Below are positions 20,329 through 63,056 of a DNA stretch of 64,000 nt, piece after piece. This stretch comes from Candidatus Magasanikiibacteriota bacterium. Its GTDB lineage: Bacteria; Patescibacteriota; Patescibacteriia; Magasanikbacterales; GWA2-37-8. The position numbers were made by a program, and so were the translations under genes. The notes under the pieces were generated by a model. That model did not search any database. It was given only the letters and a program-made list of their open reading frames with translations, and was not told where the DNA came from. Position 1 is the stretch's first letter, and each line of letters opens with the position of its first letter. The stretch is from contig SICD01000001.1 in the NCBI GenBank assembly GCA_009694865.1, positions 403 through 64,402 on the forward strand. Direction: 5' to 3'.

Positions 20329-20338
20329 AATGCCTCAA

Positions 20339-21253: not shown

Positions 21254-21261
21254 GGGCCTTA

Positions 21262-22278: not shown

Positions 22279-22315
22279 ACGTTACCAACCTCCCATTTAA
22301 ACATATAAAAAAGGA

Positions 22316-23368
22316 CTAGAAGTTTGCGGTGGCAACGTAGGTTAACGTGGCTGTATAGCTACCCGCTTCGGTGTTAGCGCCGATATTAGCCAGATACCGC
22401 ACCGAGTAGGTGGTGTTGGCCGAAGCGCCCGCCGCCGATGCGACGGTACTTGCCGTGTTGCCCGTGGCGGCATAAGCAAACCCAGCGGCCGCATAGGGCG
22501 CGCTTACCGCACCGCTGCCGCCTGCCGCGTTACTACGCAAACCAAATTGTTCAGTGCCGGCGCTGGACGCGGTATTAACGTTACCAATGGCGCTAACCGT
22601 ATTAGCGCCGCTTGTTAGCGTGGCGCCTTTAACAGTAACGGTGTACCCGCTGTTTCCGTTGGTACTGGCAATTAAGGTATGCGCTTCGGCTTCCACGTCC
22701 GAGCCAGCACCAACGCCAGCATAGCGAGCCGCGGCCGAACTTAAAGTCCCAAAATCAATGGTGTTGGCCGAGATACTAAAAGACAAAGAGGGCGCGACCG
22801 TTGCCGAAATCGCCACTTGGTCGTTGGTGACAATCTGCACGCTCATGATTCCCGCATCACCAAACGTACCGCTAATAGTAATAGTATATGGCCCAGCGAC
22901 CGAGGGGTTAACGGCATTGGAGCTATCCAAAATCATAATGAGCTTATCGCTGGCCGCTACGGCCGCCGCGCCCACGCCATCCGTTGGCGCCGTTAAAGTT
23001 AATATACGATTTTGGACTCCGGAAAAAACCGCCCCCCAAGCAGTGGCGGAGGGGTTAGCGGCCAAGGTCTCGGTGTTCTCGGCCCCGGTATTGGCACCAT
23101 GGGTAAACGTCACAGTATTAATTGCTTTGCTCGACAAATTAAAATCTGAGGGAAATGTGACTATTATGGTATCAGTATTTTCATTGGCACCGGTTGGTGA
23201 AGTAAAAGTGAGGATGTGGCTCGAAGCGGTATTTACCTTAAGCGAGGACATGGTATCGCTTAAACCCATAAGCGCCGCCGCCTCCGCCCCGGAGTATGGC
23301 CACCCTACCCCAGCCATAATAACACTTATAACGAGAGTGGCGGAAACAATTATTTTGACTGTTCTCAT
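22316..23368 (-). CDS. Secreted protein (350 aa) whose C-terminal roughly 150-aa beta-domain is paralogous to the C-terminus of the next gene
   Basis: SLSFSISANTIDFGTLSSAAARYAGVGAGSDVEAEAHTLIASTNGNSGYTVTVKG...TEQFGLR...GSYTATLTYVATANF matches FLSFSISTSTAGFGLLYPHAARYATASGAGAATETEAHTLAIGSDGVLPYVITVQG...TNQFGLR...GEYQAALTYVVTATY. Confidence 0.6.
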   Translation of the reverse strand: MRTVKIIVSATLVISVIMAGVGWPYSGAEAAALMGLSDTMSSLKVNTASSHILTFTSPTGANENTDTIIVTFPSDFNLSSKAINTVTFTHGANTGAENTETLAANPSATAWGAVFSGVQNRILTLTAPTDGVGAAAVAASDKLIMILDSSNAVNPSVAGPYTITISGTFGDAGIMSVQIVTNDQVAISATVAPSLSFSISANTIDFGTLSSAAARYAGVGAGSDVEAEAHTLIASTNGNSGYTVTVKGATLTSGANTVSAIGNVNTASSAGTEQFGLRSNAAGGSGAVSAPYAAAGFAYAATGNTASTVASAAGASANTTYSVRYLANIGANTEAGSYTATLTYVATANF

Positions 23369-23466
23369 ATATTTAAAATTACTCCTTTTTTAGGATTTCT
23401 TTAGAGCCTATAGTATAACACAGTTTGCTCAAGTCTCGAACAAAGTTATACACATAATTAATTCGT

Positions 23467-25689: not shown

Positions 25690-25692
25690 GTA

Positions 25693-27192
25693 CTATGGCG
25701 ATAGTGTTGTCGTAACTACTGTTATTATGGGCGATGAACTCGCCATAATTTCGCTAGTAGTGGTAGTAAACATATCACTCGTGCTCGTGGCCATAACCGA
25801 AAGTATTGTGGTATCTGGCGAAGACGAAACAACGATGGTAGGAACGGCGACCAGCGGCAAAGCCACTAAAGCCGCTACTGTGGTGGTGGCGTTAAGTGCG
25901 GCCACAACCTGCGAGTCCGGCAACTCATACTCTTCAGTGTCTCCGTTAAAAATAATCCATTGCCCGCCGCGCCAGTGCACTTTATAACTGCCCGATCCAA
26001 TCCAATCGGTTGGTTCGCTGTCAATAATAATAGTTTGTGAATTATACTCGCCGTCAGCGCGCCAGGCGGCAATCACCTCTGGCTCCGCTCGGCCCGAGAG
26101 CCAAAAAATAGTGTTGTCTTTCACCATTGGGGGGAGCGGCAAAAGCTCGGAGGTTTCAATTTTGTACGCGGGAGCCGTGGTGTTGCCCAACTCATCGGCT
26201 GGCGCGTACCACAAACTATACCCATCCGGGGTATGCGCCAAAGCAGTAGTAATACCCGGAGACACCACCACAATGCTAATTTCTTCGGCTTTGAGAAGCG
26301 GCTCTACAGCCTCCGGCACACTATCGGTTGGCGCGGCAATAAGCATCATCCCATCCACATACACCGGCGGCTCTGGCATAGCCCCCGGTACAAACTGGAG
26401 CATTATTTGCACCCGCCCCGGATCAATTGGTTCTGTAATGGGAATTTCAAAATCGCTCTCGGGGTGATCAATGTTAACGGTCGCGAGCGATTGCCAAGCC
26501 ACCCCATCGAGCGAGTATTGTATTAAGAACATCCCGGGTAAACTTTCGGGTACGAGTAGCGCAGTGGAGGCTTCCGCGGTTGAACTAACATTATCACTGG
26601 TGGATGTAACCACTAGGGGTAGTTCAAAAACACTACCAGTAGTAGAATTTGTCTCGGGGATAGTTTCCTCATCCAACGCCATACTCAATTCAAGAGTGGC
26701 GGGTTCCTCGGTCGTGGTGGTTGCGGCGGATGGCGTAATTTCATTAACCGTACTCACTAAAGATTCTTCAGAAACCAACGACCAGGCTAAATGCAAACGC
26801 AAACGCGAAACAAGTATTTGCTCCTCTGCCACACCCCGAAAATCCCCGCAATACAATTGCTGTACTCCTTCCGTGAACACAGCCGCGGTAGTAGTGGAAA
26901 ACAAATCTCGGGGTTCAGTAGTATCTAAAATATTTTGAGCGGCGTGCTGTGGATTTTGAACACTGCCCAAACAGGTGGTAGGGAAAAATACTATTTCTTG
27001 AGCTTGAGAAATAGAAAAAATAACCATTGTTAGCGCAATGCCAAAAAACACGGTGGTGGTTACCAAACCAAACGTCCGTATTTTTACATACGCCCACAGA
27101 CGCTCTGCGATAGTTGCGGACGTTGATAGTGCCCTGTGTCTACGACGCCACACCACAGCGCGAGTGCGTGCCTTCAATTTTTTCGCAGCCAT
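25693..27192 (-). CDS. Type II (N-terminally anchored) membrane protein, 499 aa, with a Thr/Ser-rich extracellular domain. It is the first gene of the surface locus.
   Basis: Basic cytoplasmic N-terminus MAAKKLKARTRAVVWRRRHR, a single TM LVTTTVFFGIALTMVIFSI, then a large ectodomain with T-rich stretches. Confidence 0.55.
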   Translation of the reverse strand: MAAKKLKARTRAVVWRRRHRALSTSATIAERLWAYVKIRTFGLVTTTVFFGIALTMVIFSISQAQEIVFFPTTCLGSVQNPQHAAQNILDTTEPRDLFSTTTAAVFTEGVQQLYCGDFRGVAEEQILVSRLRLHLAWSLVSEESLVSTVNEITPSAATTTTEEPATLELSMALDEETIPETNSTTGSVFELPLVVTSTSDNVSSTAEASTALLVPESLPGMFLIQYSLDGVAWQSLATVNIDHPESDFEIPITEPIDPGRVQIMLQFVPGAMPEPPVYVDGMMLIAAPTDSVPEAVEPLLKAEEISIVVVSPGITTALAHTPDGYSLWYAPADELGNTTAPAYKIETSELLPLPPMVKDNTIFWLSGRAEPEVIAAWRADGEYNSQTIIIDSEPTDWIGSGSYKVHWRGGQWIIFNGDTEEYELPDSQVVAALNATTTVAALVALPLVAVPTIVVSSSPDTTILSVMATSTSDMFTTTTSEIMASSSPIITVVTTTLSP

Positions 27193-27218: not shown

Positions 27219-28865
27219 TTATATCAAAGGCGTCCCCGTCATCTCTTTGGGCTGTGTAAGCCCCATAAGTTTTAAAACCGTCGGCGCGACATCCGCTAAA
27301 AATCCCACCGGCGGAAGCAAACTCAGATCCCCTTCCGGCGCGTCGCCACCTGGGCCGGCCTGACCGCGAAAATCAGCGCCGATGACGAGCAGGGGAACGG
27401 GATTGGTAGAGTGCTCTTTATCCATTTCACCAGTTTGCAAATTAATCACTTCTTCGGCATTGCCATGATCCGCTGTCATAATAACCACACCGCCAACCGC
27501 CAGTGTATGGCCTACAATATCGCCCAAACATTTATCAATGGTCTCACACGCGGCAATGGTGGCTTTGCGATCGCCGGTGTGGCCAACCATATCGGCATTG
27601 GCATAATTAATAACCACCAAATCAAACTTGCCGCTATCGATGGCTTTAATAGTTTTTTTTGTTACTTCGGACGCTGACATAGCTGGTACTTCGGCGTAAC
27701 TGGCCACATGCGGCGACGACACCAAAGCGCGCTCCTCGCCCGGAAAAGCTTCTTCAATTGTGCCATTCAAAAAAAATGTTACATGCGCGTATTTTTCCGT
27801 TTCCGCCGCGTGAAATTGCTTAAGACCGGCCAAACTAACGGCTTCAGCCAAACAATTACGCGCCACAATGGGCGCATAGGCCACTACCACCGGCAAATCT
27901 TTTTCATACTCCATCATGGTGACAAAAAATAACTTTTTTATGTCGCTGCGTTTAAATTTATCAAACCCGGGGAGTACAAAGGCTTTAGTGAGTTCGCGCG
28001 CGCGGTCGGGACGAAAATTAGCAAAAATAATAGCATCCCCATCAGTCACAGTCGCCACTGGCTTACCTGCCTCGCTCGCCTCGCTGGAGCTATGGCGAAG
28101 CGGGCCGGAGCCTTTGGCGGAGGCTGAATCACCATCCATAATCACGGTCGGCACAAATTCTTCATCATAATTTTTTTTCGCGTAGCTGGCTTTAATCGCC
28201 TCGGCGGGGCTAGTCGCGCTGCGTTCCGCTTTGCCTTCCGCCATTGCTTTGTAAGCCGCTTCAACTCGTTCCCAGCGGTTATCCCTATCCATGGCATAAA
28301 ACCGCCCCGAGAGCGAGGCGATCGCTCCAACTTTCAACTTTTTCAGCTTCGCTTCCAATTCTTTTACAAAACTTTCCCCGGCGCTATAAATACAGTCACG
28401 CCCATCTAAGATAACGTGGACAAAAACCTCTTTGCCTAAACCTTGCTTTTTACACAAATCCAAAAGTGCATAAAGGTGTTCATTGCTAGCGTGCACATTA
28501 CCGGAACTTAACATGGCAATAATATGGAGTTTGCTTTTATTCTTTTCCACGTGGGCAATCGCATCTAGAAAAGCCTTGTTCTTAAAAAATTCACCGCTCG
28601 ATATTTCTTGGTTAATGCGAGGACAGGATTGATAATAAACTCTACCCGCGCCAATATTAAGGTGCCCCACTTCCGAATTACCAATTTCACCAAATAAAAG
28701 ACCCACTTCGTTCCCCGAAGCGTGCAAGGTCATCGCCGGATACTCTTTAATATACGATTTAAAATTGGGCAACTTAGCCTGGGCAATAGCATTGCCATCG
28801 CTATCTGGCGCTACACCCCAACCGTCGCAGATGACAAGGGTAACTGGTTTGTAAGATTTACTCAT
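27219..28865 (-). CDS. gpmI: 2,3-bisphosphoglycerate-independent phosphoglycerate mutase (copy 1, 548 aa)
   Basis: iPGM motifs GNSEVGHLNIGAGRV and TADHGNAEE, with a metalloenzyme core. Confidence 0.85.
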   Translation of the reverse strand: MSKSYKPVTLVICDGWGVAPDSDGNAIAQAKLPNFKSYIKEYPAMTLHASGNEVGLLFGEIGNSEVGHLNIGAGRVYYQSCPRINQEISSGEFFKNKAFLDAIAHVEKNKSKLHIIAMLSSGNVHASNEHLYALLDLCKKQGLGKEVFVHVILDGRDCIYSAGESFVKELEAKLKKLKVGAIASLSGRFYAMDRDNRWERVEAAYKAMAEGKAERSATSPAEAIKASYAKKNYDEEFVPTVIMDGDSASAKGSGPLRHSSSEASEAGKPVATVTDGDAIIFANFRPDRARELTKAFVLPGFDKFKRSDIKKLFFVTMMEYEKDLPVVVAYAPIVARNCLAEAVSLAGLKQFHAAETEKYAHVTFFLNGTIEEAFPGEERALVSSPHVASYAEVPAMSASEVTKKTIKAIDSGKFDLVVINYANADMVGHTGDRKATIAACETIDKCLGDIVGHTLAVGGVVIMTADHGNAEEVINLQTGEMDKEHSTNPVPLLVIGADFRGQAGPGGDAPEGDLSLLPPVGFLADVAPTVLKLMGLTQPKEMTGTPLI

Positions 28866-28883
28866 AAAAAATCAAGATACGAT

Positions 28884-29067
28884 TGTCATTTCGAAGCCCC
28901 CTTCGCAGGGGGTGAGAAATCTCTGGCTCAATCACTTGTCATCCCGAGCGTAGTCGAGGGATCTCGCGTCGTTGGCGAGATTCCTCCACTTCGCTGCGCT
29001 CCGGTCGGAATGACAAACGACGGACAGAGATCCCTCGTCGGCCGCGAGGCCTCGCTCGGGATGACAG
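28884..29067. repeat. Composite or nested MITE family A element (about 185 bp) between the two gpmI paralogs
   Basis: tgtcatttcgaagcccccttcgcagggggtgag...cttgtcatcccgagcg...ggtcggaatgacaaacgacggacagagatccctcgtcgg...cgctcgggatgacag. It looks like two elements, one inside the other. Confidence 0.65.
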
Positions 29068-29070
29068 CAC

Positions 29071-30657
29071 TTACAGCAAGCTTCGTCCTGTCATTTCCTT
29101 CGGTTTCTTAATTCCCATTATTTTTAAAATCGTGGGAGACACGTCCGCCAGTTTGCCTTTTTTAAGGTTTCGAGATTTTAGCTTAAATTGTTTATGTACG
29201 GACGCAGGCGCTATAAACACAAATGGCACGGGATTTACCGAATGCTCCGTATCAACTTCGTCGGTCTTGAGGTTTACCATTTCTTCGGCATTACCATGAT
29301 CGGCGGTTATAACACATTGCCCTCCAGCCTTGAGGACACTCTGTGCCACGCGGTTAAGCTGTTTGTCAAGAATCGCAATCGCCTTTTCGGCGGCCGCAAT
29401 ATTCCCCGTGTGCCCCACCATGTCGGCATTGGCAAAATTAACCGCGATAAAATCATATTCCCGCGCTTCAATTGCTTTCACGGCGTAGGTGGCGATTTTA
29501 TCCGCTTCCATCGCCGGGTCAGTTTCAAAATCTTTCACGCGATCCGAAGCAATTTTTACCCACCGCTCATCGCCAAAATGCTGTTGGTAGCCGCCATTAA
29601 AAAAATAAGTGACGTGCGCGAACTTTTCTGATTCAGCGAGATATAATTGCCGGCGCGGACACAAAGTCTGTACCAAAGTATTAGGAATGTCACGACTCGG
29701 AAACGCTGTGAGTACACGCGGAAAATCCGGACCAAAATCCGCCATCGCCACAAACCGAGTATTTTTCGGCACAATTTTTCGATCAAACGTTCCGCCATTT
29801 TCCTTCTCAAACTGCGGATGCACAAACGCCTTCGTAATCTGCCGCGCCCGGTCACTGCGCAAATTAAAAAAGAAAATCGCGTCGTTACTTTTTATCGTCG
29901 CCACTGGTTTATTATTTTCAACAATCACCATGGGCGTAATAAACTCATCACTTTCACCAGAATTATACGCTTGCGTTAGTGCCTCTTCCGCGCTATTTGC
30001 CTGCTTACCTTTGCCTTCAACCATCGCCCGGTACGCCTTTTGTGTCCGGTGCCAAATTTTATTACGATCCATCCCGTATAACCGCCCCATCACCGTCGCA
30101 ATTTTCTCCGTGCCGTGAAAATGATTTTGTAAATGTTTAAGATGATGCGGCGCGTCGTGTTGACCAGAATCCCGCCCATCGGTAAATAAATGCAAATACA
30201 CTTTTTTAATTCCCTCCTGATGAATTAAACCCAAAAGCGCGAACAGGTGCTCCGGACAGGAATGCGCGCTGTTGTGATTCGAGAGCAATCCCATCAAATG
30301 CACCGCCGTTTTGTATTTTTTTACATGGTGCAGTGCTTCGTGAAACGCATTATTCTTAAAAAACGTACCGTCATTAATCGCATCGGTAATATACAGCGTA
30401 TCTTGTTTTACAACTCGCCCCGCCCCAATATTCAAATGCCCGGCTTCACTATTCCCCTCCTGCCCGCGCGGCAATCCGACGGCGACACCGCTCGCCTCAA
30501 GAAGAGTGTGGGGATATTTTTTCCACCAACCAAAAAAATTCGGCGCCGTTTTGGGCGTAATAGCGTTGCCCTTTTGTTTTGGGTCAGCCATGCCAAAGCC
30601 GTCGAGGATAATGAGGATGGTGATTGGTGATTTTGTAGGCATAATATTTCGTAACAA
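29071..30657 (-). CDS. gpmI: 2,3-bisphosphoglycerate-independent phosphoglycerate mutase (copy 2, a divergent paralog of 528 aa)
   Basis: GNSEAGHLNIGAGRV, ITADHGNAEE. Collinear with copy 1 but clearly diverged. Confidence 0.8.
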   Translation of the reverse strand: MLRNIMPTKSPITILIILDGFGMADPKQKGNAITPKTAPNFFGWWKKYPHTLLEASGVAVGLPRGQEGNSEAGHLNIGAGRVVKQDTLYITDAINDGTFFKNNAFHEALHHVKKYKTAVHLMGLLSNHNSAHSCPEHLFALLGLIHQEGIKKVYLHLFTDGRDSGQHDAPHHLKHLQNHFHGTEKIATVMGRLYGMDRNKIWHRTQKAYRAMVEGKGKQANSAEEALTQAYNSGESDEFITPMVIVENNKPVATIKSNDAIFFFNLRSDRARQITKAFVHPQFEKENGGTFDRKIVPKNTRFVAMADFGPDFPRVLTAFPSRDIPNTLVQTLCPRRQLYLAESEKFAHVTYFFNGGYQQHFGDERWVKIASDRVKDFETDPAMEADKIATYAVKAIEAREYDFIAVNFANADMVGHTGNIAAAEKAIAILDKQLNRVAQSVLKAGGQCVITADHGNAEEMVNLKTDEVDTEHSVNPVPFVFIAPASVHKQFKLKSRNLKKGKLADVSPTILKIMGIKKPKEMTGRSLL

Positions 30658-31055: not shown

Positions 31056-31145
31056 ATATTTTATTGATAATTTCTTAGGCACAAAATTTTGGCACCCTTG
31101 AATAAATAAAAATAGTTTAATAATTGAACAATCGAACCGTTGAAC

Positions 31146-31202
31146 CGGACAGAGATTCCCCTAAGAGGGATCGCGAGACCTCCTTCTTCGTCGGAATGAC
31201 AG
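31146..31202. repeat. Half copy of MITE family A (3' arm ...cttcgtcggaatgacag), followed by a ccccctcgaggggg hairpin at 31238-31252
   Basis: cggacagagattcccctaagagggatcgcgagacctccttcttcgtcggaatgacag. Confidence 0.5.
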
Positions 31203-44690: not shown

Positions 44691-44800
44691 AATTTCAAAT
44701 ATCAAAATCCAAATGTCAAACCAAGTTCAAAATCCAAAAACCAATTTTTGACATTATGGCTTTGGATTTGATTTGGCATTTGACATTTGTCGTTTGGATT
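44691..44800. repeat. Leader repeat family C (aaatccaaatgtcaaa / tttgacatttg motifs) between rpsB and tsf. A related copy lies upstream of rplY at 52700-52830.
   Basis: caaaatccaaatgtcaaaccaagttcaaaatccaaaaacc...ggatttgatttggcatttgacatttgtcgtttggattttt. It contains TTGACA motifs in the sense orientation of tsf. Confidence 0.55.
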
Positions 44801-44801
44801 T

Positions 44802-45668
44802 TTAAACAACCTCTTGCGTTTTAATCACCCGGCGTTCTTTTTTAGAAGCGTACGGAGTAACTGACTCGGCCGGAATAGCGCTGGCCACAATTTTAGGCAT
44901 CGCGGCCGCTACTTTAACTTCCCCGCCCGAGGCGGGTCCGCCTTGGGAGGATTGCTCTTTAAGCAAAGCTTTAGTTTTTTCATAATCTGCCTTGCCTTCT
45001 TTCACCGCTTCAGCCATTAAATTCACTATCATCTTAATGGAATTCACCGCGTCATCATTCGCGGGAATGGCATAATTAACTTTGGTAGGGTCAACATTGG
45101 TGTCGCAAACTGCCACCATGGGAATATTCAAACGCACCGCTTCAGCCACCGCGGTTTTTTCTACCCGCAAATCAGCAATATACAAAGCGTCCGGTAATTT
45201 TTCCAGAGTTACCAAACCAGCCAAATACTTTTCCATTTTCTCAACTTGTTTTTGAAACACTACCTGTTCTTTTTTCGTGTACTTTTCAATTTCACCAGTC
45301 GCGAACATTTCTTTAATACCTTTATACTTCTTCATGCGACGTTTAAACTCATCAAAATTGGTTATGAGTCCGCCAATCCAGCGTTCGGTTAAGTACGGCA
45401 TACCACAATCGAGCGCGGCCACTTTAACCAATTCGCGCGCCTGGCGCTTGGTGCCAACAAATAAAATAACCTTGCCTTTAGCGGCGAGGTCGTGCACGTA
45501 CTGGAGCGCGCTTGCGAGTTGCTCCAAAGTTTTGTCTAAATCAATCACGTGCACGCCATTACGCAGACCAAAAATATAGGGCTGCATTTTAGGGTGCCAG
45601 CGTGACCGTTGGTGGCCAAAATGGACGCCTGCTTTAAGCATTTCCATGAGGCTTGGTAGCTGTGTCAT
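44802..45668 (-). CDS. rpsB: 30S ribosomal protein S2
   Basis: MLKAGVHFGHQRSRWHPKM and ...ITNF.... There is a C-terminal extension. Confidence 0.9.
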   Translation of the reverse strand: MTQLPSLMEMLKAGVHFGHQRSRWHPKMQPYIFGLRNGVHVIDLDKTLEQLASALQYVHDLAAKGKVILFVGTKRQARELVKVAALDCGMPYLTERWIGGLITNFDEFKRRMKKYKGIKEMFATGEIEKYTKKEQVVFQKQVEKMEKYLAGLVTLEKLPDALYIADLRVEKTAVAEAVRLNIPMVAVCDTNVDPTKVNYAIPANDDAVNSIKMIVNLMAEAVKEGKADYEKTKALLKEQSSQGGPASGGEVKVAAAMPKIVASAIPAESVTPYASKKERRVIKTQEVV

Positions 45669-46164: not shown

Positions 46165-46222
46165 CTAAAATTTTCAAAACAGACTATACTATTGTTAGTC
46201 TGTTTTTGTTTAGTATTTCACT

Positions 46223-46336
46223 TGTCATCCCGAGCGAGGCTCGCGCCGACGAGGTCTCGCGATCCCTCGTAGGGGAATCTCTGTCCGTCGGTTGTTGATT
46301 GAGCCAGAGATTCCTCCTTCGTCGTCGGAATGACAA
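46223..46336. repeat. MITE family A copy abutting the prfA start codon
   Basis: cttgtcatcccgagcgaggctcgcgccgacgaggtctcgcgatccc...cttcgtcgtcggaatgacaa. The prfA ATG is 4 nt after the element. Confidence 0.7.
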
Positions 46337-47897: not shown

Positions 47898-47936
47898 CGT
47901 TGACTGAAGTGTGGTGGTACAGTACGATGATTGTCG

Positions 47937-47951
47937 CAATCTTCTAATCTT
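47937..47951 (+). repeat. Right 15-bp direct repeat (caatcttctaatctt) flanking cassette B, 8 nt upstream of the prmC ATG
   Basis: Identical to 47456-47470. Confidence 0.7.
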
Positions 47952-47958
47952 AAAATTC

Positions 47959-49083
47959 ATGCCAACTATCAAAATTTTACAAAAACGATACCATAGCCAA
48001 ATAAACGAGCTTGACTTTAGCATTCTTCTCGCTCACGCTATTAACAAACCGCGAGAATTCCTCTACGCTCACCCCAACTTTCCGCTTTCCGCTTTCGCCT
48101 ACGCGCGCCTAAGGTATTTTTTGTTTCACTACAAACGCGGCTATTCCGTTGCCGCCATTACCCACCATAAAGAATTTTACGGGTTAAATTTTTATGTGAA
48201 CAAAGACACCCTCATCCCCCGCCCCGAAACTGAACTGCTGGTTGAAGAAGCCATTGCGGCAATTAAAACCCCCCCCTCGCGGGGGGGCTCGGGGGGGTGT
48301 TGGCTCATCGACGTTGGCACTGGGAGCGGGTGTATTCCAATCACGATCGCCACACACCTCAATTGTCATCCTGAGCGCAGCGAAGGATCTCTGTCTCAAT
48401 CGGGAGCGGACAGAGATTCTTCGATCGCTAAGCTCCCTCAGAATGACAGTTTAAAAATATTTGCGACGGACATTTCTAAATCAGCGCTTCGCGTCGCCCG
48501 TAAAAACGCTCGAATACAAAATGTATCCATAAACTTTTTACACGGTAACCTCCTCGAACCGTTCGTAAAACAGATCAACACCGCAACACATCAACACCGC
48601 AACACTTTAACAATTGAACAATTGAACAATCAAACTATTATAATAACAGCAAATCTTCCGTATCTTACTCCGATTCAATTCGAAGCCGAACCAAGTATCC
48701 AACGCGAACCTCGCTCCGCCTTGGTTGCGGAAAATAGCGGCCTCGCATTGTACGAAAAATTGTTACAACAAATTTCTCATCTTTCTCCGTCTGTCATTTC
48801 GACGACACGTTCGCTACGCTCAGTGCAGGCTCCGGAGGAATCTCTGGCTCAATCGGCAAAACGGACAGAGATTCCCCTACGAGGGATCGCGAGACCTCGT
48901 CGGCCGCGAGACCTCACTCGGAATGACAAACTAAAAATGATCATTTTTTTCGAAATCGATCCTTCCCAAACACAAAAAATATCCTCTCTCGTAAAAACCT
49001 ATCTTCCTTTGGCCTCTATCGAAATAAAAACCGACCTCGCGGGGCGAGATCGGGTGGTGAAAATTAACCTTACGTTACCTTAG
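47959..49083 (+). CDS. prmC: Release-factor glutamine N5-methyltransferase (PrmC/HemK) carrying three in-frame repeat insertions
   Basis: NLPY variant of NPPY (ITANLPYLTP) and a SAM-binding motif IDVGTGSGCI. The product is about 90 aa longer than typical PrmC. The extra segments coincide with hairpin 48271-48287, MITE 48364-48449 and MITE 48792-48929. Confidence 0.75.
   Translation: MPTIKILQKRYHSQINELDFSILLAHAINKPREFLYAHPNFPLSAFAYARLRYFLFHYKRGYSVAAITHHKEFYGLNFYVNKDTLIPRPETELLVEEAIAAIKTPPSRGGSGGCWLIDVGTGSGCIPITIATHLNCHPERSEGSLSQSGADRDSSIAKLPQNDSLKIFATDISKSALRVARKNARIQNVSINFLHGNLLEPFVKQINTATHQHRNTLTIEQLNNQTIIITANLPYLTPIQFEAEPSIQREPRSALVAENSGLALYEKLLQQISHLSPSVISTTRSLRSVQAPEESLAQSAKRTEIPLRGIARPRRPRDLTRNDKLKMIIFFEIDPSQTQKISSLVKTYLPLASIEIKTDLAGRDRVVKINLTLP
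48364..48449. repeat. MITE subfamily A2 copy in-frame within prmC
   Basis: attgtcatcctgagcgcagcgaaggatctctgtctcaatcgggagcggacagagattcttcgatcgctaagctccctcagaatgacag. Confidence 0.65.
48792..48929. repeat. MITE family A copy in-frame within prmC
   Basis: ctgtcatttcgacgacacgttcgctacgctcagtgcaggctccggaggaatctctggctcaatcgg...gggatcgcgagacctcgtcggccgcgagacctcactcggaatgacaa. Confidence 0.65.
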
Positions 49084-49084
49084 T

Positions 49085-50647
49085 CTAGCGCTTCCTCTTT
49101 CTTTTTTTATGAACATCTCTTTTCTGTTCCGCTTTTTCCACTTCCTGCTTACGACGACCGAAGCGATGCAATAAACCAAGGGCTGCTATCACTGCAGTGG
49201 TAATAATGGTGACTTCTCCCGCCCCACCGGTACAAGGGCCTGGTGCGCTCTCTCGATGTAAACCCGGTTTCGTTGCTGATTGGCTTGATGTTACATTGTG
49301 CTCTGGCAAAACACCCAAACCAGGCTTCTGTTTTGCCTCAAGACGTTCATACAGTTTTCTTGCCAAATGTTCTAGCTTGGGCGGATCCAAAGCCAAACTT
49401 GGCAAAAAAAATAATGCTTGGTTTTTTTCGCTGATACCAGAATCATTACGAAATTGTAACCCGTAATACTCCGGCTTAGCAAGAATCTCTTCCACAGCTG
49501 CTGCTCGCAAGTTTTCTGCCGCCACTTGATGACCGGCATCGGTCAAATTATTCCGATGAGCTTCATCCGAAATATACACAACATCCATGAGTGCGCGCAC
49601 CTTATCCTTAGCAAATAATAAATGACCTACGGCACCATACGACTCCGCTCGAGCTGATTGTTCATTTTCTAATTTAGCCTCTTGACTGGCTGAACGTACT
49701 CCTGGCTGAGGCATAAAATCTGCTTGGTAGCTACTACTTTGTCTATGCAACAGATGCCCAGACTCATGTGCGATAGAATTAGCTTCCTGATTAAAATTAG
49801 AAAATGTTTGTGTATAAAATATCCGCATGAGGCGCTGCGAAGCTCCAATTGTCGCCCATTTATTTTGTTCACTGCCGCTCTTGGCAGCAATATGATTCCA
49901 CATAAAAGCATCATCCTTATCGGCGAAATAAACTAAATATTGTGGTCGCTTCTGGATTCGCTCATCGTGTACCGCTCGTAAAAGTCCTTCATCAAGAACA
50001 ATACTATTCCTAGCATTATGAGCTTCTTCTATGTTGCCGCCTCTGCGAACAGATGCGCCATTAATAACCAATTGATCCACCATGACAATTTGACGCGGGT
50101 ACTCACGACCATTAAACATGAGGCTGTCATTTTTAACTTTGTGTATACGACGTAGTTCAAATTTAGGAATACGAGCTACTACTTTATCGTGCTCATCCGT
50201 CGCTTTATCAGCACCAATGGTTACCCAAACCCCGTGCTCAGCGAGTATTTTGGGAATATCCTGAAGCAAAAGTCGAAAAAACTTTTCTTCCGAATATGCC
50301 ACATGACGATTCAACAATTTGTTTCCTGCCTCCCATAACGCTGCGTGATCGGTAGGCCCAGGAATTCGACCTCGAGCGATAATCGAATCATGCGCATTTT
50401 GAAGCGCGACCATTTCTTCTACTATTTTAGCGACTGGCTTTGGCAATTCTCCTTGTGATTCGCGGCATTGTGGCGTTGAATTATCAAGTTCAAAGGCAAG
50501 ATTTTGAATTAAAAATTGAACTTCGGGTGATTGGTAAAAATTTTCTCCAGCTTCGGCACGACCTTCTTGAGTAATTTTGCCAACAGCTAATGCGGCGCCT
50601 GCAGCTAACCCAGCCTCAAGAAAACTTCTTCTAGAAATATCACTCAT
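49085..50647 (-). CDS. Tat-signal protein with an HExxH zinc-metallopeptidase-like motif and a C-terminal TM plus Lys/Arg-rich tail. It is A+T-richer than its neighbours.
   Basis: Twin-arginine motif MSDISRRSFLEAGLAAGAALAVG. Motif IAHESGHLLH. C-terminal ...VTIITTAVIAALGLLHRFGRRKQEVEKAEQKRDVHKKRKRKR. Codon usage (AGA/AGT-rich) differs from the backbone. Confidence 0.55.
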   Translation of the reverse strand: MSDISRRSFLEAGLAAGAALAVGKITQEGRAEAGENFYQSPEVQFLIQNLAFELDNSTPQCRESQGELPKPVAKIVEEMVALQNAHDSIIARGRIPGPTDHAALWEAGNKLLNRHVAYSEEKFFRLLLQDIPKILAEHGVWVTIGADKATDEHDKVVARIPKFELRRIHKVKNDSLMFNGREYPRQIVMVDQLVINGASVRRGGNIEEAHNARNSIVLDEGLLRAVHDERIQKRPQYLVYFADKDDAFMWNHIAAKSGSEQNKWATIGASQRLMRIFYTQTFSNFNQEANSIAHESGHLLHRQSSSYQADFMPQPGVRSASQEAKLENEQSARAESYGAVGHLLFAKDKVRALMDVVYISDEAHRNNLTDAGHQVAAENLRAAAVEEILAKPEYYGLQFRNDSGISEKNQALFFLPSLALDPPKLEHLARKLYERLEAKQKPGLGVLPEHNVTSSQSATKPGLHRESAPGPCTGGAGEVTIITTAVIAALGLLHRFGRRKQEVEKAEQKRDVHKKRKRKR

Positions 50648-50658
50648 AATAAAACAAA

Positions 50659-51708
50659 TTAATTCATCACCATCACAACTAAGCTTTCTGGCACCACTTC
50701 TACCCACATCTTCCCTGGCGGAAACACAATCTCACTGCCGTTTGCATCATAAAATTTCGTGCGGGTGGAGACACTTGGTTTTTTCCACGAGCCACGAAAT
50801 AATTGACCATTAAACAAAATTCTGGCATTGCCGCTTCCCACGGTGGCAAACTCACGCCTGCCTTCGGCATCAAGAACACTCACCGGCATAAACTGAACAA
50901 TCACCGTGGTAGCAGACATTGGCAATTTGTCGTCGCCAAACTTCGCCTCGTCATTTATAAAACGCTCATAGCTACTGCTGGCCTTATTAAATTTCCAGGC
51001 AACAGAATAATCCAAGGTAAAAGGTAAAATCACTCCCCCAACTAGTTCCGTGGACGCACTCACGCGAATAGTCTTCGTAGTCGCAAATTTCCAACTCTCA
51101 AAATTGGTCGCGGTGTTCACGGGGCGGGATAAGAGCAAAGACTGCCACAAACTACTAGAGGTAAATAAATCATGCGGGGCTATGGCTATTTTGTCGCGCC
51201 AATAATATTTGCCCCAATAAAATTCATTCACATCGCGCACCGGCGGAGGATTGTTTTTCAGATACTCAAGGGCTACTGGCGAACCGCCGGAATGAAGATA
51301 AAGCGGATTGCCATACTCCCTTAGCCAATCGATGTAATACGGCCGGGCGCTCCGAATGGGCCCGAGTTTATAAACAGTCTGGTCGGACGTAAACAATGCT
51401 AAGTACCGTGTAATTCCTCCCTCGGCTAACGCCTCGTAGACTACCTTGGCGCTCGAAAGCCTTGCCTGATACTCCCAAGCTTCCGGATTGTTGTCTATCA
51501 TGGCACCTAAGACTACCCCCTCATTTTCCTTAGCCGTTAATCCCGAACCATTGAGCTTACTAAAATGCGTGTACCCCGGGCCAGTTGGCCGACGCACAAT
51601 TTTTCGTCCTAAAACCAATTGCGGGGCAGTAATTACCGCGCTTGCCAAATCAAAGGCAACCACAATAATTACCAATAAACCCGTGAGAAGTAAATATTTT
51701 TTGTGCAT
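50659..51708 (-). CDS. DUF3048 (YerB-like) family lipoprotein or secreted protein
   Basis: Signal peptide. DUF3048 pattern ...GPIRSARPYYIDWL... Confidence 0.55.
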   Translation of the reverse strand: MHKKYLLLTGLLVIIVVAFDLASAVITAPQLVLGRKIVRRPTGPGYTHFSKLNGSGLTAKENEGVVLGAMIDNNPEAWEYQARLSSAKVVYEALAEGGITRYLALFTSDQTVYKLGPIRSARPYYIDWLREYGNPLYLHSGGSPVALEYLKNNPPPVRDVNEFYWGKYYWRDKIAIAPHDLFTSSSLWQSLLLSRPVNTATNFESWKFATTKTIRVSASTELVGGVILPFTLDYSVAWKFNKASSSYERFINDEAKFGDDKLPMSATTVIVQFMPVSVLDAEGRREFATVGSGNARILFNGQLFRGSWKKPSVSTRTKFYDANGSEIVFPPGKMWVEVVPESLVVMVMN

Positions 51709-51839: not shown

Positions 51840-51952
51840 CATCATAACACAAAACAAAAACCCCGACAATCGCCGGGGTTAATCTGTTTAAATCATCACA
51901 AAATCTGTCTAAATCTGTGTTACTTTTTCTCTGCCCTTGCCTCGCCATAGCT

Positions 51953-52699: not shown

Positions 52700-52830
52700 A
52701 TATTTATTCAAATTTCAAATTACAAATGTCAAATCAAATCCAAAATCCAAATTTTAAAACCATCACATTTGAGCTTTGAGCTTGATTTGACATTTGGATT
52801 TTGTCATTTGGCATTTGCTGCGTTAGTAAT
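52700..52830. repeat. Leader repeat family C copy upstream of rplY
   Basis: caaatttcaaattacaaatgtcaaatcaaatccaaaatccaaa...ttgatttgacatttggattttgtcatttggcatttg. Same motifs as 44691-44800. Confidence 0.55.
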
Positions 52831-57260: not shown

Positions 57261-60092
57261 CTATTTAAGCACACGTTTAAGGTATTGCCCGGTGAAAGAA
57301 GCGGATTTCTTAGCAACTTCTTCCGGTGTCCCGCTGGCAACAACCTCACCCCCCTTATCCCCCCCCTCCGGCCCCAAATCAATAATCCAATCCGCGCATT
57401 TAATCACATCCAAATTATGTTCAATCACCATCACGGTATTCCCTTGTCCAACAAGTCGTTGGAGCACATCAAGCAACTTCCGCACATCATCATAATGCAA
57501 ACCCGTCGTCGGCTCATCCAGCAAATACAACGTCTTAGTCGTGCCGTGTTTTGCCAACTCCCGGCTAAGTTTAATCCGCTGTGCTTCCCCGCCCGACAGC
57601 GTCGTTGCCGATTGTCCCAAGGTTAAATAATCCAACCCCACCTCATTTAACATTTTCAATTTATCTTCCACCAGCGGAATATCTTTAAAAAACTCTTCCG
57701 CGTCTTCAATTGTCATGTTCAAAACATCCGAAATATTCTTGTCTTTATAATGCACCTGTAAAATTTCGTTGGTAAACCGTTTGCCGCGGCACACATCACA
57801 AATAATTTGCACGCTCGGCAAGAAATGCATCTCAATTTCTAAATTTCCTCGGCCTTCACAGTTTTCACAACGCCCACCTGGGACGTTAAAGCTAAATTTA
57901 CCAGATTTGTACCCCCGAATTTTTGCCTCTGGAGTTGACGCGAATAATTCCCGAATAAAATCGAAGGCTTTCGTATACGTCGCCGGGTTACTACGCGGCG
58001 TGCGCCCAATCGCGCTCTGGTCAATCGTAATCATCCGATCAATATATTCGGTCCCGGTGATTTCCAAATGCTTGCCGACCGATTTATTAAGACGAAATAA
58101 ACGATTGTTAATCGAGCGATGCAAAATATCGTGCATTAAAGTAGATTTTCCCGATCCGGAAACACCGGTAAGGCATACAAACCGTCGCAGAGGAATCTCC
58201 ACGGTAATATTTTTCAAATTATGTTCCGTCGCTTTCTTAATTTTAATTTTCGGCGTCGCCCCATCTACTTTCCGTCGCTTTTCGGGTACAGGAACTTTTA
58301 ATTCGCCGCGGAGGTATTGGCCGGTGAGAGATTTTGCTGGGTCGCCTTGGGTAGCGGCAAATACGGACTGCCCCCTCGAGGGGGCCTCACGGGGGTGTAA
58401 GACCGCTGCGTGGCCGTTTCGACTTCGCTCAAGGCCACCCTGAGCAAGGTCGAATTGGTGGCGGTCGTCGATTGAGCGACGCAAAGGACTCACACCCCCC
58501 CGAACGCCCTGCGGGGCGCCCCCCTCGAGGGGGGATTTGGCGAGCATCACCTCTAACGGCCCCGAAAACACCACTTCCCCACCATGCTTCCCCGCCCCCG
58601 GTCCAATGTCCACAATCCAATCACTCACCATAATCGTATCCTCATCATGCTCCACAACAATAATGGTATTCCCCACATCACACAAATTCCGGAGCGTCCT
58701 CACTAGTCGGTCGTTATCCCGTTGATGCAACCCAATCGTTGGTTCATCCAGTACATACAAAGCACCAACCAGTCGCGTGCCCACTTGTGATGCTAACCGA
58801 ATACGCTGTGCCTCACCTCCCGACAGAGTGCCCGCTTTCCGATTAAGTGTTAGATAATGCAAACCAACATCAAACATGAACTGCAAACGATTGCAGACTT
58901 CCTTCAATACCGCCCCGGCAATTTCGCGTTGCGTTTCCGGCAATTCCATATCCACGCTCGCAAAAAATTCCCGCGCTTCGGCAATCGATAAATTTGTTAC
59001 TTCCCAAATATTTTTATCCACCACTTTCACGCTCAAGGCCGTGGCGTTTAACCGCTTGCCTTTACACACCGGACACTCTTCTTCACTGAATAATTCTTTA
59101 GTGCCCAAACCAGTACACGCTTGGCAATAACCATAAGGACTGTTAAAACTAAACAACCGCGGTTCAATTTCCGGAAAACTAAAACCATCTTTAGGGCAAG
59201 AATATTCGGTGCTATAAATATGTTCCTCGCCGCTGGGGTACAAGACCGTACAAAGGCCGTTGGAAAGTTCCACCGCATTGGCTACTGCTTCGCCCAAACG
59301 CTGTTCAACGTCTTTCTTTGTCATCCCGACAGAGGCTCGCGCCGACGAGGTCGAAGATCCTCCGAGGAGGAGATCTCTGTCTATCGTTTGGTGAGCCAGA
59401 GATTTCTCCTTCGCCGTCGAAATGACAGACAACGCTGCCATTGGAATTTTATCAACAATTACTTCAATAGTATGTTTATCATTTTTTTCTAAAATAACCC
59501 GTTCACGCAAACTTTTTATATTGCCATCCACTCGCACCTCTAAATATCCGGAATTATAAACATCATACAACATCTGATAATATTCGCCTTTGCGTCCGCG
59601 TACTACCGGAGAAAATAAAATTAATTCAGGAGCCTTTTTTGTTTTCCCACCATCTTGTTTTAGTGCTTTTTTAATTTTTTCTATCATCTGATCGGTCGTC
59701 ATTTTCTGAATTTTCGTGCCACAAAGCGGACAATGCGGCTCGCCTACTCGGGCAAATAAAACACGGAGATAATCATAAATCTCCGTGATCGTCGCCACGG
59801 TGGAACGCGGATTCGCACTGTGCGCTTTTTGATCGATCGAAATTGCCGGCGACAACCCTTCAATTTCATCCACATCCGGCTTTTGCATGCCACCCAAAAA
59901 CTGCCGCGCGTAAGCCGACAAACTTTCAATATACCGCCGCTGACCTTCCGCAAAAATCGTATCAAAAGCCAAGCTCGATTTTCCCGAACCTGATAATCCT
60001 GTAAACACAATCATTTTATTCCGCGGCAGTTCCAAATTAATATTCTTGAGATTGTGTTCTCGCGCCCCTTTGATTATAATTTTGTCTTGCAT
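57261..60092 (-). CDS. uvrA: Excinuclease ABC subunit A, with in-frame repeat insertions
   Basis: The start [20 protein letters not shown] is the canonical UvrA N-terminus (ATG at 60090-60092). It has two ABC ATPase modules and zinc-finger Cys clusters. MITE 59318-59428 and the two ccccctcgaggggg hairpin regions at 58371-58384 and 58519-58534 are translated in-frame. Confidence 0.9.
59318..59428. repeat. MITE family A copy in-frame within uvrA
   Basis: ttgtcatcccgacagaggctcgcgccgacgaggtcgaagatcctccgaggaggagatctctgtctatcgtttggtgagccagagatttctccttcgccgtcgaaatgacag. Confidence 0.65.
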
Positions 60093-60570: not shown

Positions 60571-62931
60571 CTACCCATTGCCCCCGACCACTCGGTCGGG
60601 TTTTTTATTAGAGAGCGCTTTGATTTTCGGCGTTCCCGAAACTTTCACCCTCGTCCGCAATTCCCGCAACTCATCCCTGAGTATCGCCGCCAACTCAAAC
60701 TCTAACCCCTTCGCCGCCTCCCGCATCTGTTTCTCTTTATCTTTAATAATTTCCTCCATCGGCCGCGCATCGCCGAGCAAATCCAAATCAAGAGTTGAAA
60801 TCGCTCCGGTGCGGCCTTTTAGCCCTCTCCCGGCTCTCGCGCCTTTTGAGCCTTTAGCATTTCCCCCATCTCGACTAACACCAAACTCTTCGAGAATATT
60901 CCTAATTGTTTTTTCAATCGTCTTCGGCGTAATGCCATGTTCTTTATTATACGCCAACTGAATTGTGCGACGACGGTCTGTTTCTTTAATCGCTCGTTCC
61001 ATGGAACCCGTCATATTATCCGCATACAACACTACTTGCCCATTCACATTCCGCGCCGCCCGGCCAATCGTCTGAATGAGTGACGTTTCACTGCGCAAAA
61101 ATCCTTCTTTATCCGCGTCTAAAATTGCCACCAGTGATACCTCGGGCATGTCAAGCCCTTCGCGCAACAAGTTAACCCCCACCAACACATCATGTTTACC
61201 CAGCCGCAAATCCATAATAATCTCAATCCGTTCCAACGTGAGCACATCACTATGAATATACGCCACTTTAATTTTTTTCTCTTTTAAATACTCCGTTAAA
61301 TCCTCCGCCATTTTTTTCGTGAGGGTGGTCACGAGCACTCGCTCACCCTGCTTAATCCGTTCGTCGATGCGGATAAGGAGGTCCTCGACTTGCGACTTTC
61401 CTAAATTGTCATTCTGAGCCCCGTCAGGGGTGGCCGAAGAATCTTCCTTTTTTCTATTCGGAAGATCCTTCGCTCCGCTCAGGATGACATTTTTATTTTT
61501 ACCGGTGATGGGCCTCACCACCACCTCTGGATCAATCAACCCCGTCGGCCGCACCACCTGCTCCACAACTTGCTCACTTTCCTTAATTTCATAGGGTGTT
61601 GGCGTAGCAGACACGTACACAAGCTGTCCCACACGCTCTTCAAATTCCTTATACTGAAGCGGCCGATTATCACGCGCACTGGGAAGACGAAAACCATGCT
61701 CAACCAGAGTATCTTTGCGTGCCCGGTCGCCATTATACATCCCTCTGATTTGAGGAACGGTAACGTGGGACTCGTCGATGATGGTGAGGAACCCCCGAGA
61801 CATCCCCTCACCCGACCTCTCCCGCGGGGAGAGGAGGCGCTTCCCCTCGCCCCGCGGGAGAGGGACGGAGGGTGAGGGTTCGGTCGCACTATACCTAAAA
61901 TAATCCAACAACGTAAACGGCGGCTCCCCTTCCGCGCGCCCTTCAAAATGCCGCGAATAATTTTCAATGCCGTTGCAATACCCAATATTTTTTATCATCT
62001 CCAAATCATACGCCACTCGCCGCTTTAACCGTTCATATTCCAAAACTTTCCCCTGCCGTTCAAACACCGCGAGTTGTTCGTCGAGCTCGCTTTTGATTCT
62101 CGCAAACGCCTGTTGACGAGAGGCCTCACTCACCACATAATGCTTCGCCGGAAAAAACCAAACATCAGACTCGCGCCTGATGTTTGTCCTGAGGCCGCGC
62201 ACGGCCGAAGGACCCCTCTCATCAACATCCGAACTAGCAAGAACCGCCCGAGTAACACGATCTAATTTTTCAATTCGGTCGATATGGCTCGAGATCTCGA
62301 ATCGATAAATCGCATCCTCATTCACCGGCATTATTTCAAACACCTGCCCGTGCAACCGAAAACTGCCCCGCTTTAGTTCGCTGTTCGTCCGCTCAAATTG
62401 CATCGCGACCAATTGTTCCAACATCGCCCGCCGATCAAGTTCATCCCCCCGTCGCAAATGCAAAACAATTTTTTCATATTCTTTAGGAGACCCCAAACCG
62501 TAAATCGCCGAAACCGATGCCACAATAATAACATCCCGCCGCGTCAACAACGCCTGCGTACACGCATGCCGCAACCGATCAATCTCCTCGTTCACCTGCG
62601 CCTCTTTTTCAATATAAGTATCACTCCCCGGCATATACGCCTCGGGCTGGTAGTAATCATAATAACTAACAAAATATTCTACCGCGTTATCAGGAAAAAA
62701 TTCCCGAAATTCATTACACAACTGCGCCGCCAAAGTTTTGTTATGCGCAATAACAAGCGTTGGCATTTGCACCTGTTGAATCACATTCGCCATCGTAAAG
62801 GTCTTTCCCGAACCGGTTACGCCAAGCAATGTCTGCTTCCGCATTCCCTGCTCCAAACCCAAAACAAGCCTTTCAATGGCTTTGGGCTGGTCTCCATCTG
62901 GCTGGTATTTTGATTTTATTTTGAATTGCAT
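60571..62931 (-). CDS. uvrB: Excinuclease ABC subunit B, with in-frame repeat insertions
   Basis: The start [22 protein letters not shown] is the UvrB N-terminus (ATG at 62929-62931). Helicase motifs GVTGSGKT and the C-terminal UVR domain are present. MITE 61406-61490 and the family-B element 61803-61877 are read through in-frame (...[26 protein letters not shown]...). Confidence 0.9.
61406..61490. repeat. MITE subfamily A2 copy in-frame within uvrB
   Basis: ttgtcattctgagccccgtcaggggtggccgaagaatcttccttttttctattcggaagatccttcgctccgctcaggatgacat. Confidence 0.65.
61803..61877. repeat. Palindromic element family B copy in-frame within uvrB
   Basis: tcccctcacccgacctctcccgcggggagaggaggcgcttcccctcgccccgcgggagagggacggagggtgaggg. 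Nearly identical to 6747-6824. Confidence 0.65.
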
Positions 62932-62972
62932 GCTGTATGTGTCATTGCGAGGAGGAAAAAATCTACCGCCGA

Positions 62973-63056
62973 CTGTCATCCTGAGTCGGAGCGAAGGATC
63001 TAGTTCGATCAAAATGGCTTACCGACTAGATTCTTCATTTCATTCAGAATGACAGC
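62973..63056. repeat. MITE subfamily A2 copy (intergenic, between uvrB and xerC/D). A partial A3 terminus (tgtgtcattgcgagg) lies at about 62937-62951.
   Basis: ctgtcatcctgagtcggagcgaaggatctagttcgatcaaaatggcttaccgactagattcttcatttcattcagaatgacag. Confidence 0.65.

Follow-up and report, generated by a model that had tools for sequence, protein, structure and literature searches.

Within the window analysed here, that is, the whole stretch of 64,000 nucleotides taken from contig SICD01000001.1 of a Candidatus Magasanikiibacteriota bacterium (GenBank assembly GCA_009694865.1), the minus strand carries a gene, referred to below as the target gene, for a protein of 520 residues that combines (i) an N-terminal signal of the type recognized by the twin-arginine translocation (Tat) system, (ii) an HExxH metal-binding motif, (iii) a C-terminal transmembrane (TM) helix, and (iv) a poly-basic tail. 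The first-pass annotation, made from the letters of this DNA, had noticed precisely this combination, and our analysis confirms it: all four features are kept across the protein family to which the target belongs. Gene and product comprise the following features.

49085-50647, minus strand: target gene, coding for the 520-residue protein with Tat signal, HExxH motif and C-terminal tail; stop codon at 49085-49087.
50549-50647, minus strand: predicted Tat signal peptide, residues 1-33 (match to Pfam TAT_signal, conserved RR pair, weak hydrophobic region).
50627-50632, minus strand: codons of the twin arginines R6 and R7 (sequence and family conservation).
49328-50530, minus strand: globular, presumed extracytoplasmic domain, residues ~40-440, with a predicted fold like that of dipeptidyl peptidase III (DPP III) (structure model).
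49754-49768, minus strand: HESGH, residues 294-298, predicted to supply two metal-ligand His residues and the catalytic Glu (family conservation).
49643-49645, minus strand: E335, candidate third metal ligand (conserved in 32/32; role proposed by analogy with gluzincins and peptidase family M49).
49529-49531, minus strand: H373, candidate transition-state stabiliser (role suggested by His/Tyr conservation).
49217-49327, minus strand: disordered stalk rich in Pro, Gly, Ser and Thr, residues 441-477, including Cys472 (alignment; predicted local distance difference test score, pLDDT, <50 over 442-490).
49160-49213, minus strand: C-terminal TM helix, residues ~479-496 (VTIITTAVIAALGLLHRF) (hydropathy, modelled helix, ~27 relatives).
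49088-49159, minus strand: predicted cytoplasmic poly-basic tail, residues 497-520 (GRRKQEVEKAEQKRDVHKKRKRKR) (K/R count, R499 conservation).

The mechanical open reading frame (ORF) of the target gene extends over 49085-50707 (minus strand) from a GTG start. Translation more credibly begins at the ATG at 50647, because this codon falls 12 nucleotides past the stop of the upstream gene and yields an N-terminus, MSDISRRSFL (MSDISRRSFLEAG...), that can be aligned position by position with those of relatives. The product is identical to the NCBI entry 'MAG: hypothetical protein EXS55_00225 [Candidatus Magasanikbacteria bacterium]', where MAG stands for metagenome-assembled genome.

A full HMMER scan of 1.84 billion (1.84e9) representative proteins, with relatives counted at E-values up to 1e-3, identified 34 relatives of the target (35 proteins with the query, 16 of them at E up to 1e-10). 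Most are 500-615 residues long and match end to end, at identities to the target of 17-36%. Word-indexed homology searches, whether started from the protein, from the full family alignment or from a trimmed core alignment, gave the query alone, plus P0031 once, and the family pattern derived from alignment A2 gave no loci in GTDB representatives, one in the metagenomes of the Joint Genome Institute (JGI) and none in IMG/VR. An additional member with the same layout, L091, comes from a JGI metagenome. At the N-terminus, R6 is kept in 28/28, R7 in 27/28 and F9 in 27/30, and L10 is kept as well; in the metal motif, H294 and E295 are each found in 33/33 and H298 in 32/33. E335 is kept in 32/32 and lies 37 residues downstream of the motif (HExxH-X36-E), position 373 is His in 28/34 and Tyr in 5/34, and further conserved positions are Y395-G396, Q410, S119 and P132. 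About 27 relatives possess the C-terminal hydrophobic helix and the basic tail, and R499, directly past the helix, is Arg in 29/31 and Lys in the remaining two. Their shared presence in proteins no more than ~20% identical to one another shows that these features are not coincidental. One relative, P0012, carries HETGQ in place of HExxH and may be inactive.

The nearest relative (36% identity) is encoded in another Magasanikbacteria MAG, and both the query and P0002 come from Magasanikbacteria MAGs. For P0026, a class I aminoacyl-tRNA synthetase from the same MAG, presumably IleRS, is 66-78% identical to those of Patescibacteria/Doudnabacteria MAGs, which places that MAG among the Patescibacteria, near Doudnabacteria. 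Every relative for which an organism can be named belongs to the Patescibacteria, and the other contexts look like those of the Candidate Phyla Radiation (CPR), with type IV pilus genes and small ORFs. Judged by these comparisons, the target is a member of a small, rare, hitherto undescribed but coherent family which is so far found only in Patescibacteria.

The n-region of the signal peptide reads S5-R6-R7-S8-F9-L10 (SRRSFLE) and fits the S/T-R-R-x-F-L-K consensus of Tat signals. Residues 3-23 match Pfam TAT_signal (PF10518) with 23.7 bits, above the cut-off of 22.7, TIGR01409 falls narrowly short (16.0 vs a cut-off of 16.7), and the Pfam model matches 10 of the 35 family members at E up to 1. 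The hydrophobic h-region is Gly/Ala-rich and only weakly hydrophobic, and the c-region holds K24 and R30; A31-E32-A33 is the likely signal-peptidase site, as the A-x-A triplet is conserved in the family alignment. Across the family, the mean maximum hydropathy of the h-region is 1.97, compared with 2.93 for Sec-type signals (Mann-Whitney p = 1e-4), the latter set being made up of secreted proteins of the same window and of family members devoid of the RR pair. A Lys or Arg in the c-region ahead of the conserved A-x-A, a feature associated with avoidance of Sec, is present in 24 of 27 members. The signal peptides of this family thus behave as Tat and not as Sec signals, and dependence on Tat is predicted. 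The claim that this is the sole twin-arginine signal of the window was borne out by a six-frame regular-expression scan, which gave no other N-terminal RR-x-[FLIVM] signal.

Three relatives without the RR pair, P0025, P0029 and P0030, possess strongly hydrophobic Sec-type N-termini and have lost the C-terminal TM helix and tail. Because their N-termini are so much more hydrophobic and the C-terminal anchor is lost, these proteins look like a genuine change of pathway and topology, from a Tat-dependent C-tail to a Sec-dependent N-terminal anchor, rather than like drift of a motif.

A translocase to match the signal was sought in the DNA at hand. A six-frame scan of the window revealed no TatA-like ORF, and none of the small ORFs downstream of family genes, checked for the same protein, is TatA. 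Likewise, tblastn with E. coli and B. subtilis TatA and TatC queries detected neither tatA nor tatC in the window or in the ~0.5 Mb of relatives' loci, an absence that is uninformative because the DNA scanned is a small fraction of any genome. A survey of freshwater CPR MAGs recorded TatA and TatC for Microgenomatia, Paceibacteria and Saccharimonadia but has no such entry for ABY1, to which Magasanikbacterales belongs, and its KEGG module table marks Tat as incomplete in every class (PMC9166423); tatBC is present in one soil Saccharibacterium (PMC6031116). The first-pass annotation called Tat dependence notable for a lineage thought to have minimal secretion systems; as a premise that the lineage lacks Tat, this is overstated, given TatA and TatC in other CPR classes.

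It is conceivable in this situation that the RR pair is not used by Tat at all, either because the translocase is absent or because the pair is a relic, and that Sec/YidC handles the signal of an otherwise identical surface-anchored enzyme. Such a scheme would fit the missing entry for ABY1 and the absence of the KEGG Tat module from all classes (PMC9166423), the lack of tat genes in the window and the fetched loci, the observation that some RR signal peptides proceed via Sec in reporter assays (PMC10924467), and the plain hydrophobic N-termini of the three relatives without RR. It is nevertheless unlikely: the RR pair is essentially invariant across a family of ~20% identity, low hydrophobicity of the h-region and a basic c-region keep substrates off Sec, and those members that do lack RR are far more hydrophobic at the N-terminus and devoid of the anchor. 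Although indirect, the near-invariance of RR in so divergent a family is, in our judgement, the best argument at hand for the use of Tat by these organisms.

Turning to the other end of the protein, the hydropathy maximum of the C-terminus is 1.77 at 475-493, and the 27 residues past that hydropathy window (494-520) comprise 14 K/R and 4 D/E. AlphaFold2 predicts a long terminal helix which is set off from the core by a disordered linker. Tails in the family measure 24-110 residues, being mostly 24-39 residues long and reaching 80-110 in one subgroup. Whereas the first-pass annotation had left the choice between a secreted and an anchored protein, the C-terminal anchor predicts tethering to the membrane, and release is not predicted.

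This layout is that of a known class. The founding examples of Tat-dependent tail-anchored proteins are five Fe-S proteins of E. coli, HybO, HyaA, HybA, FdnH and FdoH (PMC10924467). Experiments published in 2024 added three kinds of Streptomyces protein, namely an S1 peptidase, a DD-carboxypeptidase and substrates of sortase (Gallego-Parrilla et al., PMC10924467), in a study which mentions neither zinc enzymes nor Patescibacteria. In the target as in these proteins, a twin-arginine signal at the N-terminus precedes a large exported globular domain, and one TM helix near the C-terminus leads into a basic end on the cytoplasmic side; cofactor-less hydrolases are already part of the class (PMC10924467). 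It differs (i) in its catalytic domain, (ii) in coming from Patescibacteria instead of Proteobacteria or Actinobacteria, (iii) in being known here from sequence alone, and (iv) in the tail, which is unusually long and basic in the target family and is joined in a subgroup by an extra helical cytoplasmic domain.

Two observations on the C-terminal region stand on their own. Cys472 (49232-49234) is part of a [DNP]-x-C-[GST] motif that places a Cys 5-8 residues before the TM helix; it is kept in the subgroup closest to the target (P0002, P0003, P0005, P0006, P0008, P0009 and P0033), is absent from the rest of the family, and might be a site of lipidation, disulfide formation or sorting. A second set of members (P0014, P0017, P0019, P0020, P0022, P0023, P0026, P0028, P0032, P0034 and P0035) carries a cytoplasmic extension of 60-110 residues with a conserved 'LQL ... 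RQxA' and three or four predicted helices, for which no family match was found.

The succession of motif, TM helix and basic cluster also resembles the tripartite layout of known C-terminal sorting domains, and could accordingly be a cleavable sorting signal of the sortase, exosortase or rhombosortase kind, perhaps with Cys472 as its motif, in which case the enzyme would be moved to the wall or to lipid, or be released. The conserved Cys of the closest subgroup and the existence of Tat-dependent sortase substrates (PMC10924467) are in line with such processing, as are faint sub-threshold matches to NCBIfam GlyGly-CTERM models, though these fall in the catalytic region and not in the tail. Yet neither LPXTG nor another known motif is present, the CTERM and LPXTG models of NCBIfam give no match to the last 81 residues at E up to 10, the tails (24-39 residues, 80-110 in the subgroup) are far longer than those of sorting signals, and the Cys is missing in most of the family. 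A sorting signal is thus very improbable, and we largely rejected it on account of the tail lengths and the lack of a matching tail model. Since a subgroup carries a long helical extension, the tail appears to be a true cytoplasmic segment.

For the region between these ends, residues 35-470, searches of Pfam, NCBIfam, PADLOC, PHROGs and PDB sequences gave no model that spans it, the PDB having been searched with the single sequence and two profiles. What these searches returned were short sub-threshold matches centred on HExxH, to Reprolysin_5, M48, SprT and a small Streptomyces zinc protease. An AlphaFold2 model calculated from the 35-sequence alignment has a mean pLDDT of 84, exceeding 90 over most of residues 40-440, and a predicted template modelling score (pTM) of 0.79. 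In it, helices at the N-terminus are followed by a beta unit of five strands (140-219) and by a helical lobe that would bind the metal. HExxH lies on helix 287-302 and E335 on helix 320-345, so that the model predicts a gluzincin-type arrangement, in which HExxH on one helix is complemented by a Glu ligand on the following one. A metalloprotease-type fold, as expected by the first reading of this protein, is predicted indeed, but the candidate families named at that time do not hold, as just one of the 35 members touched Peptidase_M48 (E = 0.051), none matched M56 or DUF4157, and the fold is instead DPP III-like.

The predicted structure conforms to the two-lobe fold of DPP III, the enzyme of family M49. 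Foldseek found no significant match in the PDB, with DPP III being best at E = 0.36. The nearest fold is that of CoDPP III from Corallococcus sp. EGB (PDB 5zum, M49; PMC9820243), with 11-14% identity to the target over about half the chain. CoDPP III is an atypical bacterial DPP III which contains the pentapeptide HELMH in place of HExxGH, EEAKAD as second motif, a helical zinc lobe and a five-stranded beta-core lobe; it has a signal peptide and was isolated from culture supernatant (PMC9820243). Its signal peptide is an ordinary one and it lacks a membrane anchor, whereas the target family combines a Tat signal with a C-tail; M49 enzymes are, moreover, mostly cytosolic, and the target family is predicted to be extracytoplasmic. 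None of the 35 members matches Pfam Peptidase_M49 at E up to 1, and the PDB profile search did not retrieve DPP III. Agreement with the M49 signatures is partial. The first occurs in its pentapeptide form, HExxH, while of the second, EE-x-[RK]-A-[ED], no more than 'EE' or one E recurs: most relatives read HEEI[ND]G (for example, HEEING), with E335 corresponding to the second Glu of 'HEE', and the target itself reads RAESYG. In the M49 'EE' motif, the second Glu binds zinc; the invariant Glu of the present family, being the second of the 'EE' pair in most members, parallels it. The ligand spacing of human DPP III is about 52, compared with 36 in the target family. Thermolysin-type gluzincins (thermolysin and pseudolysin of M4, lugdulysin of M30) gave much lower structural scores, differ in domain organisation, and no sequence model of theirs matched.

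Fold and motif do not prove hydrolysis, because enzymes sharing them perform other chemistry. PolE/DUF6421 (PDB 9j2e) adopts the DPP III fold with the motif HE/DxxH-X21-23-E and is an Fe- and pterin-dependent desaturase/oxidase, and alpha-ketoglutarate (alpha-KG)-dependent HExxH oxygenases exist too (PMC12614342). A protein of the same topology might accordingly be a metal enzyme of the DPP III fold that is not a peptidase, either a PolE/DUF6421-like Fe(II) oxidase/oxygenase or of the alpha-KG HExxH type, and be exported by Tat because its cofactor is loaded in the cytoplasm. We regard this as improbable. DUF6421 proteins are cytosolic, mainly actinobacterial and devoid of Tat signal and anchor, their likeness to the target family being confined to the fold, and the DUF6421 Pfam model matches none of the 35 members. 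A peptidase is favoured since DPP III scores above PolE in both structure models, the motif Glu is invariant (33/33) and never Asp, in contrast to the E or D of DUF6421, the third ligand is spaced by 36 instead of 21-23 residues, the conserved His/Tyr at 373 fits a transition-state helper of a peptidase, and it is not obvious how reduced pterin or alpha-KG would reach an enzyme outside the cytoplasm.

The codon usage of the target gene is unusual. With a GC content at third codon positions (GC3) of 0.329, it ranks lowest among the 43 long ORFs of the window, the other 42 spanning 0.40-0.57 (mean 0.485, standard deviation 0.042; z = -3.7 for the target). The low GC3 holds over the full length of the gene, with a sharp change at its borders, the upstream gene having 0.501 (Fisher p = 5e-7). 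When genes are ranked by synonymous-codon likelihood, prmC alone (z = -6.05) is more atypical than the target (z = -4.2). There is a general preference for A/T-ending codons, with GCA and GCT making up 68% of the Ala codons as against 30% elsewhere. The previously noted bias towards AGA and AGT can be upheld for AGA, which is enriched (7/38 Arg codons vs 7% elsewhere), and not for AGT, which is not distinctive (25% vs 21%). Seven loci were compared (L001, L003, L005, L006, L007, L008 and the window), and in every one the GC3 of the family gene falls short of the average for the genes around it. It ranks lowest in L005, as in the window, second lowest in L008 and, as a more marginal case, third lowest in L006. 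This low GC3 may reflect either recurrent transfer among CPR lineages or a codon bias specific to the gene.

The first-pass annotation had suggested that the protein could be a metalloprotease effector, acquired and either secreted or anchored; in its fuller form this reading would make the acquisition recent and a host or competitor the target. Its rare and patchy family, the lowest GC3 of the window (0.33) with a sharp shift at the gene borders, and the GC3 below the neighbours' mean in all seven loci speak for acquisition, and we take the codon bias as no more than suggestive. Nonetheless, the nearest relative (36%) resides in the same candidate phylum, in another Magasanikbacteria MAG, and another member in a Patescibacteria MAG; the gene is tightly set between prmC and rplY, in a stretch of housekeeping genes; the window has no tRNA genes, and no integrase or repeat lies within or flanks the gene; and no relatives were found in the phage, plasmid and IMG/VR collections. 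An origin from a mobile element was rejected on the latter grounds. The role of an effector finds no backing, as there is no conserved partner, secretion-system neighbour, or phage or plasmid relative, and nothing ties the gene to a host-directed function. Taken together, we consider an acquired effector distinctly unlikely.

The gene shares its surroundings with the following features, the second and third of which are consensus matches only.

50659-51708, minus strand: DUF3048 gene with a Sec-type N-terminal anchor, upstream of the target and 12 nucleotides from its ATG.
49031-49053, minus strand: terminator-like hairpin of 10 bp, 7 of them GC, followed by a T-run, 32 nucleotides past the target stop.
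51841-51880, minus strand: region upstream of the DUF3048 gene with a terminator-like hairpin at 51859-51880 and, overlapping it, a promoter-like site at 51841-51869.

Because these hairpins and the promoter-like site bracket the DUF3048 gene and the target, the two genes are likely to form a two-gene transcription unit. The convergent prmC gene (47911-49083, plus strand) and the target gene (minus strand) end one nucleotide apart (49083-49087), which places the hairpin at 49031-49053 inside the 3' coding end of prmC. The pairing with DUF3048 is not kept elsewhere, and the contexts of eight relatives (L001-L010) and of L091 have no neighbour in common. Genes for the envelope or polysaccharides are frequent near family genes, although inconsistently so (Wzy_C, Polysacc_synt, glycosyltransferases, SpoIID, a Mur ligase with Ddl). 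Other genes of the window are prfA, prmC, rplY, uvrABC, genes of aminoacyl-tRNA synthetases and of glycolysis, and a cluster for cohesin/dockerin surface proteins, a set in keeping with a piece of CPR/Patescibacteria chromosome.

Several further observations concern the window itself. GC-rich palindromic repeats of the type 'TGTCATCCCGAGCG...GGGATGACA', 30-55 nucleotides long and up to 100% complementary between copies, are dispersed over it and are probably what had been referred to earlier as high-GC cassettes.

2739-2772, 6150-6282, 7583-7685, 28882-29066, 31145-31202, 46219-46335, 48361-48390, 48861-48928, 59318-59427 and 61463-61492: copies of the GC-rich palindromic repeat.

Two of the palindromic copies lie in frame inside prmC (47911-49083, plus strand) and are read through as extra peptide segments. 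A GC-rich direct repeat of 80 nucleotides occurs at 6748-6827 and 61803-61882, 55 kb apart and 90% identical, with one copy in a nitroreductase-like ORF (6396-7568) and the other in a uvrB-like ORF (60571-63012). At 17680-27192 (minus strand), seven consecutive genes of higher GC content (0.49-0.54) encode proteins with an N-terminal signal or anchor; two of these carry either cohesin with Big_13 domains or Big_6 with dockerin, and the rest have no Pfam match. Here a CPR genome may encode an assembly at the cell surface that resembles a cellulosome. The tandem paralogues at 27219-28865 and 29071-30657 (minus strand) are ~70% identical in DNA at a fixed offset of 1831 nucleotides, and their N-termini, read by eye, presumably resemble cofactor-independent phosphoglycerate mutase. 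Finally, AT-rich 'CAAAT/ATTTG' arrays at 44691-44805 and 52706-52815 are mutually inverted and 71-77% complementary. Both are intergenic, one lying between ORFs which, from their N-terminal sequences only, we take to be rpsB and tsf, and the other just upstream of rplY, and they may constitute a shared regulatory or promoter-associated element beside translation genes.

Coming back to the target, it is in our opinion moderately probable that the protein is an extracytoplasmic, C-tail-anchored, gluzincin-like metallopeptidase which is inserted by Tat and belongs to a small undescribed family. Four results weigh against this assignment: the negative tblastn searches for tatA and tatC, the missing mention of Tat for ABY1, the lack of any sequence model over residues 35-470, and the Foldseek search devoid of a significant match. 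The features of the sequence, their conservation in the family and the predicted fold are what we observed, and from these we infer the following course of events. The target would fold in the cytoplasm, probably with its metal bound there, and the N-terminal SRRSFL signal would direct it to the TatA/TatC translocase, through which the globular domain of ~400 residues would cross the membrane. The C-terminal helix would then halt transfer and integrate, leaving the Lys/Arg tail in the cytoplasm (N-out/C-in), and the signal peptide would be cut after A31-E32-A33, so as to present the catalytic domain at the cell surface on a disordered stalk of ~40 residues. There it would hydrolyse peptides, with H294, H298 and E335 binding the metal, E295 serving as the general base and H373 assisting. 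The DPP III-like two-lobe fold suggests oligopeptides as substrates, each of which would lie as a beta-strand along the sheet of five strands.

What is new in this picture is a rare, Patescibacteria-associated zincin family that joins the known Tat-dependent tail-anchored class, and neither a new mechanism nor a new principle. One may, tentatively and as a possibility that we would not call probable, go further and view the target as the founding member of Patescibacteria-specific surface zinc peptidases, which would then be the first known Tat-integrated, tail-anchored zinc metallopeptidases, with a metal loaded in the cytoplasm. The strict conservation of their twin-arginine signals would imply a working Tat system in Magasanikbacteria (ABY1), for which none has been reported, and the basic or helical tail would couple the external enzyme to the interior of the cell.

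CPR bacteria, or Patescibacteria, are tiny, auxotrophic and largely uncultured, and their mostly unannotated surface proteome is thought to mediate dependence on other cells. It is tempting to speculate that in such an auxotrophic cell the enzyme serves peptide scavenging or the processing of envelope proteins. An orphan CPR surface protein gains a conserved, testable architecture, in which a Tat signal precedes a zincin domain like that of DPP III and a stalk leads to the tail anchor with its basic end, and the Tat-dependent tail-anchored class would be extended to a new type of enzyme and to a new phylum. The family may also serve as an indirect marker of functional Tat where fragmentary MAGs make the translocase hard to call. 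Finally, it would add a distant, membrane-bound branch to the structural superfamily of DPP III, which, as exemplified by PolE, includes chemistry other than that of peptidases.

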